Assembly (NCBI GenBank): GCA_028718865.1
Contig: JAQUKX010000006.1
Span: 1 to 62,885 of the forward strand
Direction of reading: 5' to 3'
DNA: 62,885 bases
Origin: Patescibacteria group bacterium
GTDB lineage: Bacteria > Patescibacteriota > Patescibacteriia > UBA1558 > GWA2-36-10
Of this stretch, positions 6,109 through 59,810 are shown piece after piece (position 1 is the first letter of the stretch; each line of letters opens with the position of its first letter). The notes under the pieces are model-generated. The model saw only the letters and a list, made by a program, of their open reading frames with translations. It made no database searches and was not told the DNA's origin. A program made the translations under genes and the position numbers.

Positions 6109-7395
6109 ATGAAAAATTTAAATAAAATTGATCCTGCCATAGCCCAAATACTGGAAAAAGAGTTGTCTCGCCAAAGACTGGGAGCAGAAATGATTGCTTC
6201 GGAAAACTTTGTTTCCCTAGCTGTTTTGGAAGCTACTGGCTCAATCTTGACCAATAAATATGCCGAAGGTTATCCAACTAAAAGATATTATGGTGGCAAT
6301 GAATTTATTGATCAGGCGGAAAACTTGGCTATTGAGCGGGCCAAAAAATTATTCAAAGCTCAGCATGCTAATGTTCAGCCTCATGCTGGCAGTCAAGCCA
6401 ATATGGAAACTTATTTTGCTCTGGCTGAGCTGGGCGACACGATCTTAGGATTTTCTCTGGCTCATGGTGGCCATTTGACTCATGGCCATCCGGTTAATTT
6501 TTCCGGCAAATTTTATAACTTTATCCACTACGGCGTAGATGAAAAAAGCGAGTTGATTGATTTTGACCAGGTGCGCGCTTTGGCTAAAAAAAATAAACCA
6601 AAAATAATTCTAGCTGGCGCTAGTGCTTATCCTAGAAAAATTGATTTTAAAATTTTTAAAGAAATTGCCGATGAAATGGGCGCTTATCTAGTAGTAGACA
6701 TGGCTCATATTGCTGGGCTGGTAGCGACCGGACTTCATCCTGATCCTATTCCTTATGCTGATGTCGTGACAACTACTACTCACAAAACATTGCGTGGCCC
6801 CCGAGGAGCAATGATCTTGTCTAAGATTGAAGATAGGCTAAGACCAAACGACAACCCTTCGGCTTCGCTCATGACTAGAAAAAATTTGGCACAAAAAATA
6901 GACAGCGCTGTTTTTCCTGGTATGCAAGGCGGACCACTGGAACACGTCATTGCTGCCAAGGCCGTAGCTTTTGGCGAAGCTCTGCAGCCGGAATTCAAAA
7001 CTTATCAAGAACAAGTAATCAAAAACTGCAAAGCTCTGGAAAACAAATTCCATGAAGCCGAAATAAAAATGGTTTCTGGCGGAACTGATAATCATCTACT
7101 CTTGTTAGACGTAAGTAAAATTGGATTGTCAGGCAAAGAAGCCGAAAGATTGCTGGACAGCGTCCATATCTTCACCAATAAAAACATGATTCCTTTTGAT
7201 CAGCGAAAGCCAATGGATCCATCTGGCATCAGACTGGGCACAGCTGCTTTAACTACTCGCGGACTAAAAGAAAAAGAAATGGCAATTATTGCCAATATTA
7301 TTATTGACACTCTCAAGGGCAAACAAGCTAAAGACAGCAATAAGAAAAATGTCATGGAGCTGATGAAAGAATTTCCTCTTTATCCGGAATTATAA
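6109..7395 (+). CDS. glyA: Serine hydroxymethyltransferase
   Basis: [41 protein letters not shown]. Confidence 0.97.
6855..6875 (+). repeat. REP-like element remnant (CCCTTCGGCTTCGCTCATGAC) in-frame inside glyA
   Basis: Ends in ATGAC like the elements at 7458 and 11918; encodes PSASLMT in a loop region. Confidence 0.5.
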
Positions 7396-56129: not shown

Positions 56130-56813
56130 ATGAAAACAACTATCTATACTGAAAGATTCTTTAAAGAAAATAGCTCCTACTCTTTAAAATCTGCTAAAGT
56201 TATGGTTCCTTTGATCTTAAAATTACTCCATCCTAAAAGCATCGTTGATGTTGGCTGTGGCACTGGAGATTTTTTATATATATTTCAAAAAAATGGAGTG
56301 AAAGATATATTAGGAATAGACGGAGACTACGTTAATAAGAAAAAATTATTAATACCAAAAAAGCTATTTTTAGAGACTAATCTTGAAAAGCCTTTAAACT
56401 TAAAAAGGAAATTTGATCTGGTTATTTCCCTAGAAGTCGCTGAACATCTATCGGAAAAATATGCTAAACAATTTATCAAAACACTCACTAACCTTGGTTC
56501 AATCGTCCTTTTTTCTGCTGCTATACCTCTACAAGGAGGTACTCATCATATCAATGAGCAATGGCCTGAATACTGGGTAAAAATATTTGCGCGAAGAAAT
56601 TATCTAGCTATAGATTGTTTCCGAAAAAAAATATGGAATAACAAAAAAGTAAGTTTTTGGTATGCTCAAAATACTCTCTTGTTTGTCAAAAAAGATTTGC
56701 TTCAAAAAAATCTTATTTTAAAAAAAGAATTTGAACTAAATAAAAATTCTATTTTATCAGTTGTTCATCCTCGTCTTTTTCTCTTTAAATTAAAACATAA
56801 AAAAACATTTTAA
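56130..56813 (+). CDS. Class I SAM methyltransferase (glycan-modifying type)
   Basis: VDVGCGTG, FDLVISLEVAEHL, FSAAIP.QGG.HHINEQWP.YW. Confidence 0.85.
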   Translation: MKTTIYTERFFKENSSYSLKSAKVMVPLILKLLHPKSIVDVGCGTGDFLYIFQKNGVKDILGIDGDYVNKKKLLIPKKLFLETNLEKPLNLKRKFDLVISLEVAEHLSEKYAKQFIKTLTNLGSIVLFSAAIPLQGGTHHINEQWPEYWVKIFARRNYLAIDCFRKKIWNNKKVSFWYAQNTLLFVKKDLLQKNLILKKEFELNKNSILSVVHPRLFLFKLKHKKTF

Positions 56814-57913
56814 TGATAGCCAAAAAAATAACCATAGCTATTTTATGCGGCGGAAAATCAGCCGAACACGAAGTGTCTTTGCAGTCAGCCAAAAATATCT
56901 TGGCAGCTTTGGATCGCAAAAAATATAGTCCCCTAGTAATTATCATAGACAAAAAAGGTCCTTGGTTTGTCAATAAAAACAATGACTTCTTGAAACAATC
57001 AAATTATCAAACAAAGATAAAAGTGAATAAAGGCTTTCAAGAAGTAGTGCTAGCAGCTGACAGCCGCAGCCAATTATTATTTTTGAATGGCAAAAAACCA
57101 GCCTTAAAAATAGATGCTGTTTTTCCAATACTGCACGGCACCTATGGTGAAGACGGCACTGTCCAAGGGCTGTTGAAACTGGCTGATGTCCCTTTTGTCG
57201 GTGCCGGTGTCTTGGGATCAGCTGTAGGCATGGACAAAGATGTAATGAAACGACTTCTAAAAGAAGCTCGGTTGCCTATAGGCAAATTTATAACCCTTGC
57301 AGACTATCAGTCTTTGCCTGATTTTAAAAAAATTAAAAAAGAACTAGGACTGCCCTTTTTTATCAAGCCGGCCAATATGGGCTCTTCAGTGGGAATAAGT
57401 AAAGTCAAAAACAACTCTCAATATTTACCAGCAATTAGAGACGCTTTTAGCTATGACAATAAAATAATAATTGAAGAATTCATTGACGGGCGAGAAATAG
57501 AATGTTCGGTTTTGGGAAATGACCAAGTAATGGCCTCGCTTCCCGGAGAAGTAAAATCCAATCATGACTTTTATTCTTATCAAGCTAAATATCTGGATGA
57601 AAAAGGAGCAATTTTAGAAATTCCCGCCAAATTGGAAGTTAAAAAAACAAAAGAAATACAAAATCTGGCTCTTAAAACTTTTCAGGTCTTAAATTGCCAA
57701 GGTTTGGGACGGGTAGATTTTTTTCTCAAAAATAATGGCCAAATTATCATCAATGAAATTAATACTCTGCCCGGCTTCACTCAAATCAGTATGTATCCCA
57801 AGCTCTGGGAGCAAAGCGGTTTGTCTTACTCACAACTGATAGATAAGCTGATTCAGCTAGCTATAGAGCGTCATCAAAAAGAAAAAAAATTAAAAACTAA
57901 TTATTTTAATTGA
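56813..57913 (+). CDS. ddl: D-alanine--D-alanine ligase
   Basis: CGGKSAEHEVSLQSA, LHGTYGEDG, KPANMGSS.G, YSYQAKY, NEINTLPGFT..SMYP. Confidence 0.96.
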   Translation: MIAKKITIAILCGGKSAEHEVSLQSAKNILAALDRKKYSPLVIIIDKKGPWFVNKNNDFLKQSNYQTKIKVNKGFQEVVLAADSRSQLLFLNGKKPALKIDAVFPILHGTYGEDGTVQGLLKLADVPFVGAGVLGSAVGMDKDVMKRLLKEARLPIGKFITLADYQSLPDFKKIKKELGLPFFIKPANMGSSVGISKVKNNSQYLPAIRDAFSYDNKIIIEEFIDGREIECSVLGNDQVMASLPGEVKSNHDFYSYQAKYLDEKGAILEIPAKLEVKKTKEIQNLALKTFQVLNCQGLGRVDFFLKNNGQIIINEINTLPGFTQISMYPKLWEQSGLSYSQLIDKLIQLAIERHQKEKKLKTNYFN

Positions 57914-57937
57914 CAACTTGATTTTTACTGCTATAAT
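57910..57937 (+). promoter_or_regulatory. sigma70 promoter of the trp leader
   Basis: TTGACA-16-TATAAT with TG extension; predicted start site coincides with leader ATG 57944. Confidence 0.75.
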
Positions 57938-57943
57938 AAAAAT

Positions 57944-58000
57944 ATGAAAAATAACAAGCTACAATTAATTTCTACTTGGTGGGAGGCCGATATTTTTTAG
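57944..58000 (+). CDS. trpL: trp leader peptide MKNNKLQLISTWWEADIF
   Basis: Tandem TGG TGG at 57977-57982 upstream of trpB, coupled to attenuator segments. Confidence 0.85.
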   Translation: MKNNKLQLISTWWEADIF

Positions 58001-58057
58001 GCGGCCTTTTTTTATTTACATTTTTTAATAAACGCGCCGCCAAAAGGCGGTTTTTTT
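57984..58057 (+). promoter_or_regulatory. Ribosome-dependent transcription attenuator
   Basis: 1:2 AGGCCG/CGGCCT; 2:3 GGCGGC(58000-05)/GCCGCC(58036-41); 3:4 CCGCC/GGCGG plus T7. Confidence 0.85.
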
Positions 58058-58063
58058 ATTTTT

Positions 58064-58117
58064 ATGAAAAAATTTATTTATCACAATTTAGCTACATTTT
58101 ACTGGCGAGGCAACTAG
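58064..58117 (+). CDS. Second Trp-containing u[20 protein letters not shown]
   Basis: Hand translation; TAC TGG CGA near the stop; small GCGA/TCGC hairpin follows. Confidence 0.45.
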
Positions 58118-58157
58118 TCGCTTATTATTGCTATTTAAAAAATTAAATGAAAAAAAT

Positions 58158-59375
58158 ATGAAAATTAATTATAAAAACAGCCCAGACAATAAAGGTTACT
58201 TTGGACGCTATGGTGGCCAGATTATTCCGCCGGAGCTAAAATCTCTTTTTGACCAAATCGCCCAAGAATACGAAAAGGCCAAAAAAGATCCTCAGTTTAT
58301 AAAAGAATATAAAAATCTGCTCAAAAACTACGTGGGTCGGCCATCGCCTTTATACCTAGCTAAAAATCTTAGTCAAAAACTAGGCGGAGCCAAGATTTAT
58401 CTCAAACGAGAAGATCTCAACCATACTGGCGCTCACAAAATCAACCATACGATAGGCGAAGCGCTCTTGGCCAAAAGAATGGGCAAGAAAAAATTGCTGG
58501 CGGAAACTGGGGCTGGTCAACATGGCGTGGCTCTGGCTACAGCCGCAGCTCTAGTTGGTCTGGAATGTGAAATACACATGGGCGCCATTGATATCAAAAA
58601 ACAACAACCCAATGTCAGTCGTCTGCGATTGCTAGGAGCCAAAATAGTGTCCGTCAATTCTGGAGGCCGTTGTCTTAAAGATGCGGTTGATAGTGCTTTT
58701 AACGCTTTTTTAAAAGATCCCCAAAATATATTTTTCGGCATTGGCTCAGTGGTCGGGCCTCATCCTTTCCCCATGATAGTGCGAGACTTCCAGTCTATAG
58801 TCGGCCAAGAAGCCAAAGAGCAAATCATAGAGCAAGCTGGACGTTTGCCTGATTATCTGATTGCCTGCATCGGTGGTGGCTCTAATGCCATTGGTCTTTT
58901 TCACGAGTTTTTAAACGACGATGTCAAAATGATAGGCGCCGAACCAAGTGGTCGCAGCTTCAAAGACGGCGACCATGCTGCTACTTTAACCTTGGGTAGT
59001 CCAGGAGAAATCCATGGCATGTTTACCTACCTTTTGCAAAACAAAAAAGGCGAGCCTATGCCAGTTCACTCTATTGCCTCGGGCTTGGATTATCCAGGTG
59101 TCGGCCCTATTCACGCTGATCTCAAAGACAAAAAACGAATAGACTATGTCACTATCAGCGACAGCGAAGCTCTGGAAGCTTTCCAAATTCTAACTAAAAG
59201 TGAGGGAATAATTCCCGCTCTAGAAAGCAGTCACGCTTTGGCTCAGGCCATTAAGTTGGCACCTCAATTAGAACTGGACAAAATTATCATTGTCAATTTG
59301 TCCGGCCGAGGAGATAAAGATTTGGATTATGTGGAAAAAATCTTAAAACAAAAAATTGACAAACCAAAAAAATAA
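58158..59375 (+). CDS. trpB: Tryptophan synthase beta chain (start at ATG 58158), no adjacent trpA
   Basis: [51 protein letters not shown]. Confidence 0.96.
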
Positions 59376-59423
59376 GGCTAGTTTATTAAAGTTACCTTGT
59401 TACTTCAATCTGGAGGTCAAAGC

Positions 59424-59810
59424 ATGTTAAATCCGCCAACTGAACCCTCACCCTTAGGTCAATTTTTCGGTCTTAAGTTAGGAGAGTTTGATCCCTGGAA
59501 AAAAACTTATAGCGTTGAATTCTTGCCCACCAAAGCAATGACCAACTTCTTCCGTACTGTTCATGGTGGTGCTCTGGCAGCCATATTTGACGAAACAATG
59601 GCTATGTTGGCCTATTTCCTCCATGGTATCAATTCAGCAGTTACTGACCAAATAAGCGTCAGCTACTATAGACCCCTACGGCCACTGAGGCCTATTTTAG
59701 TGGAAGTCTGGCTGACATCTGAAGGCCAGTATTCTCTATTTATCCGAGCCAAAGCCAGCAGGGCCGGCCAACTGATCGCTGAAGCTTCCAGCCAATGGCA
59801 AAAACGCTGA
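59424..59810 (+). CDS. PaaI/hot-dog fold thioesterase (start at ATG 59424)
   Basis: GGAGGT SD; N...VHGGALAAIFDE; ISVSYYRP. Confidence 0.8.
   Translation: MLNPPTEPSPLGQFFGLKLGEFDPWKKTYSVEFLPTKAMTNFFRTVHGGALAAIFDETMAMLAYFLHGINSAVTDQISVSYYRPLRPLRPILVEVWLTSEGQYSLFIRAKASRAGQLIAEASSQWQKR

Follow-up and report, generated by a model that had tools for sequence, protein, structure and literature searches.

The contig JAQUKX010000006.1, from the metagenome-assembled genome (MAG) of a Patescibacteria group bacterium (assembly GCA_028718865.1), carries a stand-alone trpB gene for the tryptophan synthase β subunit, preceded by an apparently complete tryptophan attenuator. The window analyzed here is this entire contig of 62,885 bp, and the genome consists of 877 kb in 24 contigs with an estimated completeness of 98%. 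All of the features of the locus lie on the plus strand, and positions are those of the window. A sigma-70 promoter occupies 57910–57937, with TTGACA at 57910–57915, a 16-nt spacer and an extended −10 element, TGcTATAAT, whose hexamer lies at 57932–57937; it agrees with the consensus at 12 of 12 positions and has the extended −10 TG in addition. Downstream is a leader open reading frame (ORF) of 18 codons, ORF1 (MKNNKLQLISTWWEADIF; 57944–58000), which starts with ATG at 57944, stops with TAG at 57998–58000 and contains two tandem Trp codons, UGG UGG, at 57977–57982. Three pairings are predicted in the following RNA. First, hairpin 1:2 joins 57981–57989 with 58001–58009 (−11.1 kcal/mol by RNAfold) and is followed by a U7 run at 58007–58013. 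Second, antiterminator 2:3 joins GGCGGCC at 58000–58006 with CGCGCCGCC at 58033–58041 (−12.7 kcal/mol). Third, intrinsic terminator 3:4 (58036–58057; −10.9 kcal/mol) is composed of GCCGCC at 58036–58041, AAAA and GGCGGU at 58046–58051, with a T-run (U7) at 58051–58057. A second upstream ORF (uORF), ORF2, lies at 58064–58117 between the terminator and trpB, and has a single Trp codon at 58103–58105. The trpB gene itself (58158–59375) encodes 405 amino acids and is flanked by ddl upstream (56813–57913) and by a hotdog/4HBT thioesterase gene downstream (59424–59810), with trp genes on neither side. The initial annotation of this DNA had described, at 57910–59375, a lone trpB behind a leader with adjacent Trp codons (WW) and complete 1:2, 2:3 and 3:4 pairings. 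All of these elements were found in place with coordinates shifted by 1–2 nt, the leader being ORF1, and the three pairings were recovered by folding with the energies given above.

The switching of the leader was modeled by folding it in three states: with no ribosome, with one occupying the second UGG (footprint +10 nt) and with one at the stop codon. When no ribosome is modeled on the window leader, hairpins 1:2 and 3:4 both form. With the ribosome on the second UGG, 2:3 becomes the minimum-free-energy (MFE) structure and the terminator is gone, and with the ribosome at the stop codon the terminator alone forms. After shuffling of the spacer at 57993–58035, the loss of the terminator with the ribosome modeled on WW was reproduced in 4 of 500 sequences. 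Small ORFs that start with ATG and encode 10–30 amino acids number 7182 in the 877-kb genome; 57 of them contain WW, and ORF1 alone among these 57 has both a promoter and a terminator. The tandem regulatory codons, the intrinsic terminator, the alternative antiterminator (in silico) and the compensatory conservation that characterize trpL-type attenuators were all found for this locus. A search of 57000–59500 against Rfam at E ≤ 10 gave nothing relevant, the best matches being unrelated small RNAs at E of about 1, and the covariance model of the Trp_leader family, RF00513, did not match there even at E ≤ 10. The attenuator would work like trpL yet lies outside this family. Hairpin 1:2, being followed by seven U residues, has the look of a further terminator or pause site, one that would come into play on an untranslated leader; by analogy with E. 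coli trpL, it is likely to be a pause or 'no-translation' terminator hairpin.

The same arrangement recurs in relatives. A trpB gene is present in 10 of 60 related genomes, and in all ten it is preceded by a WW leader and then a terminator. Further loci of the candidate phyla radiation (CPR) type from GTDB genomes and metagenomes, including dozens of metagenomic ones, mostly have this WW-leader arrangement as well. The hairpin arms are wholly different among clades (GGCGGCC, GGGUAG, UAGGCGGU, GCUGGCG and GUGGGUAG), with the three-state switch retained. In 26 of the 30 distinct loci the terminator leaves the MFE structure with the ribosome at WW and is intact with the ribosome at the stop codon, and shuffled spacers of the related loci seldom switch (mean fraction 0.16, with three non-switching loci included). 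The trpB locus of one MAG of the window's own family (G035/L006) is identical to L035. When 20 related loci were scanned at the Rfam gathering thresholds, only tRNAs and one SAM riboswitch were detected. The attenuator is thus conserved across the relatives, its arms having changed in a compensatory way.

Between the −10 hexamer and the ATG of ORF1 there are 6 nt, and a TAnnnT −10 box recurs at this distance 5′ of the leader start codon in about 14 related loci, one in Leucobacter included. Because this spacing between the −10 box and the ATG is conserved across about 14 loci, the ORF1 mRNA is probably leaderless. The missing Shine-Dalgarno (SD) sequence before ORF1 is itself uninformative on this point, since the genome as a whole makes no use of SD sequences; over the whole genome, the SD core was found upstream of 26 of 434 long ORFs, compared with 25 at control positions inside genes, and examples of starts without it are at 6109, 19792, 40152 and 56813 in the window.

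Other kinds of Trp-responsive control are also associated with this gene in relatives. A TrpR-family gene (PF01371, 68 bits) lies directly 5′ of the WW leader in L005 (1060–1365), L006, L007, L010 and L018. In relatives of the L005 type, the gene order is trpR, leader and trpB, the leader ATG overlaps the stop codon of the TrpR-family gene, and the latter is preceded by a 24-bp near-perfect palindrome centered on CTAG (TACTATTATACTAGTGTAATAGTA). This arrangement suggests dual control by a putative repressor and an attenuator in the TrpR-bearing relatives. In the window's genome, no TrpR-like gene was found, and the best tblastn match (E = 0.1) is a UvrC-like ORF. In the CPR-type trpB loci L020 (281–473) and L026 (about 2780–2830), the WW leader is missing and a T-box-like sequence, GGUGGCACCGCG, is found instead, with ORF2 kept. 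The T-box assignment itself was not retained: L020 gives a weak, sub-threshold Rfam match (32 bits compared with a gathering score of 93), and L026 has no Rfam match despite the motif GGUGGCACCACG. Trp-specific regulation thus seems to recur at orphan trpB genes, some relatives having a TrpR-family gene and a palindromic operator and one a weak T-box-like element. The trpS gene of the window's genome, on the minus strand of contig C11, has neither a leader peptide nor a T-box. The records of L013, L015, L018 and L020 are labeled Bdellovibrionales, Flavobacteriaceae, Pseudomonadales and Bacteroidota, respectively; their trpB genes, leaders and low G+C contents are CPR-like, and they fall inside the CPR orphan clade described below. 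They are likely to be mis-binned contigs or to bear wrong labels.

The protein encoded by trpB is of the TrpB1 type, which settles the choice between TrpB1 and TrpB2 raised by the initial annotation. It scores 560 bits against TIGR00263, for which the cut-off is 392, and stays below the cut-offs of the TrpB2 models TIGR01415 (186 bits compared with 519) and PRK12391 (190 compared with 366). The motifs with the catalytic pyridoxal-phosphate Lys, Glu and Asp are intact and GLDYPG is conserved. The best matches in the PDB are TrpB chains, with 5ey5_B, the reconstructed TrpB of the last bacterial common ancestor (LBCA), at the top (537 bits). The remainder of the pathway was not detected. Neither trpA (PF00290) nor trpC (PF00218) was found in the window's 98%-complete genome, and neither trpE (PF00425) nor trpF (PF00697) was found there or in the nine other trpB-bearing relatives tested. 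The sole match of the trpD model in the genome, in an ORF of about 500 amino acids, reaches 42 bits compared with a cut-off of 199, and we take this ORF to be a nucleoside/AMP-phosphorylase-type paralogue. Nor was trpA found in any of the 61 genomes of the order, among them G026, which carries trpB and is assembled as one contig. The initial annotation's view of a trpB lacking its partners therefore holds at the level of the genome, where neither a trpA gene nor a full operon came to light elsewhere, and glyA for serine hydroxymethyltransferase (609 bits), which it had named as a possible source of serine, lies on the same contig at 6109–7395. Among 401 Patescibacteria genomes sampled evenly, 26 had a bona fide trpB, and 22 of these 26 had trpA as well, usually adjacent. 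Since most trpB genomes also have trpA, a lone trpB is not a phylum-wide trait; it belongs to this order and a few other lineages and is not general in CPR.

The closest public TrpB proteins bear names from the Patescibacteria group, such as Falkowbacteria, Magasanikbacteria and Parcubacteria. The nearest homologues outside CPR (55–68% identity) come from Leucobacter, Propionibacteriaceae, Desulfovibrionaceae, Spirochaetota, Marinilabiliaceae and others, and are isolated genes with no adjacent trpA, as assessed by motif scans and whole-genome family searches. Eight of the ten genomes of free-living carriers have two trpB genes, with trpA directly beside the other copy; in the remaining two, which carry the orphan trpB as a single copy, trpA was not found. 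A tree was built that included the canonical TrpB copies and ten TrpA-linked TrpBs from CPR. In this tree, all 71 TrpBs without an adjacent trpA (28 from CPR, 41 from other phyla and two from the phylum sample) are united in a single clade with a support of 99 in the Shimodaira–Hasegawa-like approximate likelihood ratio test (SH-aLRT), from which 18 of 18 TrpA-linked proteins are excluded. Orphans from CPR and Actinomycetota group together within it (SH-aLRT 98). Identity to the window TrpB is 57–93% for the orphans and 48–55% for the TrpA-linked copies. The window TrpB is thus a member of a well-supported, cross-phylum clade of orphan TrpB1 proteins, separate from TrpA-linked TrpB. The gene is no remnant of a decayed operon; it falls in a dedicated orphan clade shared with other phyla. 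Orphan trpB genes outside CPR often have a WW or WWW leader and a terminator of their own, as in Leucobacter, Maridesulfovibrio, Desulfomicrobium and a Marinilabiliaceae strain (loci L061, 2800–2935; L059, 2800–2990; L074; and L084). The Leucobacter leader, MHIVIQWWTA, has TACACT 6 nt before its ATG and is followed by a terminator, and a terminator likewise accompanies the Maridesulfovibrio leader, MNISSSNFTLCNWWWRM. In L011 (G053:C21), from a genome of the same taxonomic order, a distant TrpB-like gene on a very long branch (34% identity, E = 1e-38) replaces the orphan TrpB1.

Two residues distinguish the orphans from the TrpA-linked TrpBs. D178 of the window protein is an invariable Asp in the orphans and Asn in TrpA-linked TrpBs. 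Mapped through the register of K87, E109 and K167, it would correspond to Salmonella β-171 in helix H6 of the COMM domain, a helix that contacts TrpA loops (PMC9512447). S197, which is S187 in LBCA-TrpB, lies at a 'Res6' site and is an invariable Ser in the orphans, and Ser at this site favors stand-alone activity of TrpB (PMC11917138).

The trpB genes of the family to which the window's genome belongs are spread over three sub-clades and sit in unrelated genomic contexts. Together with the presence of trpB in only 10 of 60 related genomes, this points to repeated transfer of the cassette as a whole. The flanks of trpB are common to one genus group only, and elsewhere the cassette occupies differing contexts. 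A comparison with empty sites, as a view of cassette insertion, was abandoned: no clean site was available, and the thioesterase gene is rare (3 of 37 related genomes) and in no shared synteny. This gene may be a recent acquisition. It has a clear GGAGG 8 nt 5′ of its ATG at 59424, in a genome otherwise without SD sequences.

Most CPR loci have, downstream of the terminator and ahead of trpB, a homologue of ORF2 with one Trp codon, commonly in the form M-x-K-F-I-F-K-x-H-C-T-E-F-W-R. Three statistics were calculated from 32 distinct sequences anchored on the Trp codon, the pairs of which are not phylogenetically independent. First, the third codon position is the most variable (entropy of 1.28, compared with 0.86 and 0.94 at the other two). 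Second, 56.5% of single-nucleotide codon differences are synonymous, compared with 18.4% expected (0.565 and 0.184 as fractions). Third, the real reading frame has the highest amino-acid identity of the frames. Because the third position is variable, synonymous changes are in excess and the true frame is the best conserved, the ORF2 peptide itself appears to be under selection. One clade (NLxWWKDFxxWR) and a few metagenomic loci have ORF2 and the WW leader joined in a single ORF. ORF2 is present before an orphan trpB of the phylum sample (L194), and it was not found before TrpA-linked or non-CPR trpB in the loci examined. The signature of TnaC (W12, D16 and P24 followed by the stop codon) was not found in ORF2. 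Two further candidates were discarded. A weak hairpin 3′ of the ORF2 Trp codon, whose GGCG-initiated stem recurs in roughly half the loci, does not surpass shuffled sequences, and a minus-strand match to an ORF2-like pattern (about 58020–58069, opposite the terminator) lacks a start codon and merely reflects the hairpin sequence.

From these data, ORF2 is a candidate for a regulatory nascent peptide or a translational-coupling device. We tentatively propose, as an idea with perhaps modest prospects, that its peptides form a novel family of nascent peptides that regulate in cis and are confined to the orphan trpB of Patescibacteria. In such a scheme, the peptide, acting from within the ribosome tunnel, would either react to free tryptophan or indole by holding the ribosome at its single Trp-Arg codon pair or sharpen the response to uncharged tRNA-Trp, so that ORF2 would form a second sensing tier after the tRNA-charge tier of ORF1, and leaders with a single ORF (NLxWWKDFxxWR and NWWTTSLWR) would be fused tiers. 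It might go further, with decisive control residing at ORF2, through nascent-peptide arrest or translational attenuation that gates trpB, and with ORF1 as an accessory. The peptide-level constraint would fit such a role, as would the retention of ORF2 where a T-box-like leader replaces ORF1 (L020 and L026) and its position in L025, L022 and L019, where it overlaps or abuts the start of trpB. However, orphan trpB loci outside CPR have ORF1-type attenuators and no ORF2, the distance from the Trp codon of ORF2 to its stop codon varies from 2 to 34 codons, the hairpin that follows this Trp codon is neither strong nor consistent, and a mechanism of this kind is not derivable from sequence alone. 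Decisive control at ORF2 is therefore considered unlikely.

The preferred reading is that 57910–59375 is a self-contained tryptophan-salvage cassette, in which a Trp attenuator controls a TrpA-independent TrpB1 that uses indole, and we regard this as probable. Transcription would start at or next to the A of the ATG at 57944, and the ribosome would load straight on the leaderless 5′ end and translate the 18-codon leader with its UGG UGG. When charged tRNA-Trp is scarce, the ribosome would stall on UGG UGG and cover segment 1, so that segment 2 (58000–58006) could pair with segment 3 (58033–58041); the terminator would be blocked, and RNA polymerase would go on to transcribe ORF2 and trpB. With ample Trp, the ribosome would reach the UAG that abuts segment 2 and mask this segment, the 3:4 terminator (58036–58057) would form and transcription would stop. 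Without translation, hairpin 1:2 with its U7 and hairpin 3:4 would both form. TrpB1 without TrpA would then condense indole from a host or the community with L-serine, which glyA on the same contig could provide, to yield L-tryptophan, and the translation of ORF2 may add a further regulatory or translational-coupling step. This reading rests on the sequence elements, their conservation with compensatory variation, the absence of the rest of the pathway and the membership of TrpB in the orphan clade. From these we infer that the ribosome stalls, that initiation is leaderless and that indole is the substrate used in vivo. The proposal of Trp-regulated indole scavenging made in the initial annotation is accordingly supported as a whole, with indole use and Trp-dependent readthrough as its putative steps.

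Several points weigh against the salvage cassette. In the folding model, pairings 2:3 (−12.7 kcal/mol) and 3:4 (−10.9 kcal/mol) are nearly isoenergetic as isolated helices, and a footprint of +13 nt instead of +10 nt lets the terminator of the window win by about 0.5 kcal/mol. The thermodynamic model alone is thus not decisive, and a co-transcriptional order in which 2:3 forms first must be invoked, as in E. coli. In addition, the folding of the whole leader is unremarkable against shuffled sequences (z = −1.35), and 4 of the 30 loci fail to switch in the simple folding model. The regulatory model is also incomplete, since it does not account for ORF2. Concerning the enzyme, typical TrpB1 proteins have low activity when TrpA is missing, TrpA usually being needed for full activity (PMC11917138), and only one of the six 'Res6' residues linked to stand-alone activity is identical in the window TrpB; these residues were dropped as a predictor of such activity for that reason. 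The trees were quick searches with SH-aLRT values as their only support, and the genome is a 24-contig MAG, for which absolute exclusion of a missed gene is out of reach.

The attenuator could also be real while TrpB serves mainly another role, such as indole detoxification, serine deamination or another β-substitution in which a different nucleophile is used. Isolated TrpB β subunits catalyze side reactions, and free-living carriers keep a full TrpAB in addition to the orphan copy, so that de novo synthesis in these organisms needs no orphan. Against another role, the tandem Trp codons, the TrpR-family repressors and the T-box-like element indicate that Trp supply is what has been selected, TrpB has the catalytic residues of a bona fide TrpB1, and no alternative Trp route was found in the window's genome. 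We consider another main role of TrpB improbable. The notion that TrpB has an unseen partner, either a trpA that escaped assembly or an activator not homologous to TrpA, for which the ORF2 peptide is conceivable, is less probable still. It draws on the fragmentation of the MAG into 24 contigs, on the usual requirement of TrpB1 for TrpA (PMC11917138) and on the peptide-level conservation of ORF2 beside trpB. However, trpA is missing from 61 of 61 genomes of the order, among them a trpB-bearing genome in one contig, and the orphan clade stands apart from TrpA-linked TrpBs; since the non-CPR orphan loci lack ORF2, this peptide would be no general activator of the clade. Finally, a chance combination of a WW ORF with hairpins that just terminate ddl, leaving trpB under an unregulated promoter, could appeal to the modest z of the whole-leader fold and to the abundance of small ORFs in AT-rich genomes such as this one (7182, as given above), but it is already contradicted by the comparative data and hardly credible, as a perfect promoter between ddl and the hairpins places the latter inside the trpB transcript, WW leaders with the same switch occur in more than 40 loci with differing sequences and neighbors, and ORF1 is the sole small WW ORF of the genome that has a promoter and a terminator.

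The mechanism proposed for the salvage cassette is a textbook trp attenuator and embodies no new principle. In the literature searched, no description of leader-peptide attenuation in CPR/Patescibacteria was found. New with respect to the initial annotation are the orphan TrpB1 clade, the linkage of trpB to trpA across the phylum and the second conserved uORF. If the cassette acts as proposed, some of these ultra-small bacteria maintain, under tight control by Trp, a means of making tryptophan from environmental indole, which would be a concrete link in their dependence on a host or neighbors. The orphan clade would be a natural TrpB1 lineage without TrpA in several phyla, a source of stand-alone enzymes already made by nature, and as such bears on the allostery of tryptophan synthase and on biocatalysis, where stand-alone TrpB activity is currently obtained via directed evolution or ancestral reconstruction (PMC11917138). 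ORF2 is a candidate new regulatory nascent peptide.

Among known systems, the closest in mechanism is the trpL leader of E. coli and other enterobacteria (RF00513), where, likewise, tandem UGG codons lie within a short leader ORF, pairings 1:2, 2:3 and 3:4 are mutually exclusive, the terminator has a U tract and the position of the ribosome decides on termination. Unlike trpL, the leader region of the window matches no Rfam family, its leader is probably leaderless rather than SD-led, and its switch would govern one orphan trpB instead of trpEDCBA, with a second uORF after the terminator. The trp attenuators of Actinobacteria (Corynebacterium and Streptomyces) have WW or WWW leaders, GC-rich poly-U terminators and conserved complementary triples (Seliverstov et al., 2005, PMC1262725). 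The same architecture precedes the orphan trpB of Leucobacter, and Actinomycetota orphans group with those of CPR (98), whereas the attenuators of PMC1262725 precede biosynthetic operons and trpS2 rather than an orphan trpB, and CPR are not covered there. Short leaderless polycysteine ORFs in mycobacteria (bioRxiv 10.1101/834739) are similar in that a leaderless small ORF senses the supply of an amino acid and tunes a downstream operon. They differ in the amino acid sensed, and conserved terminator hairpins were not found in the cys leaders of Mycobacterium (Seliverstov et al., PMC1262725), whereas the window has a textbook intrinsic terminator and an antiterminator. TnaC and other ligand-sensing arrest peptides are encoded by short uORFs with conserved amino-acid sequences. 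As in TnaC, it is the peptide sequence of ORF2, and not merely its codons, that is conserved, and the operon is related to Trp and indole; in contrast to TnaC, the W12-D16-P24 pattern is missing from ORF2 and its stop codon lies at varying distances.

With respect to physiology, trpRBA of Chlamydia trachomatis serves indole salvage in a reduced genome without the upstream pathway and has a TrpL leader and Trp-dependent control (PMC7755916; PMC8376405). The order of trpR, a leader with Trp codons and trpB in L005–L007, L010 and L018 is reminiscent of it. Chlamydia, however, retains TrpA as an allosteric activator of TrpB, whereas the window's lineage has no trpA and the window's genome no TrpR-family gene. 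Salvage of indole by TrpB2 has been described in Thermococcus kodakarensis (Hiyama, 2014, as cited in PMC11085991). LBCA-TrpB and the TrpB of Pelodictyon luteolum (plTrpB) are stand-alone enzymes, and plTrpB still has a TrpA partner (PMC11917138). The window protein differs from stand-alone TrpB enzymes in being TrpB1 rather than TrpB2 and in having one of the six Res6 residues identical. Like them, it would act on free indole without TrpA, and it has 5ey5_B as its best match in the PDB and shares with them the Ser at the Res6 site.

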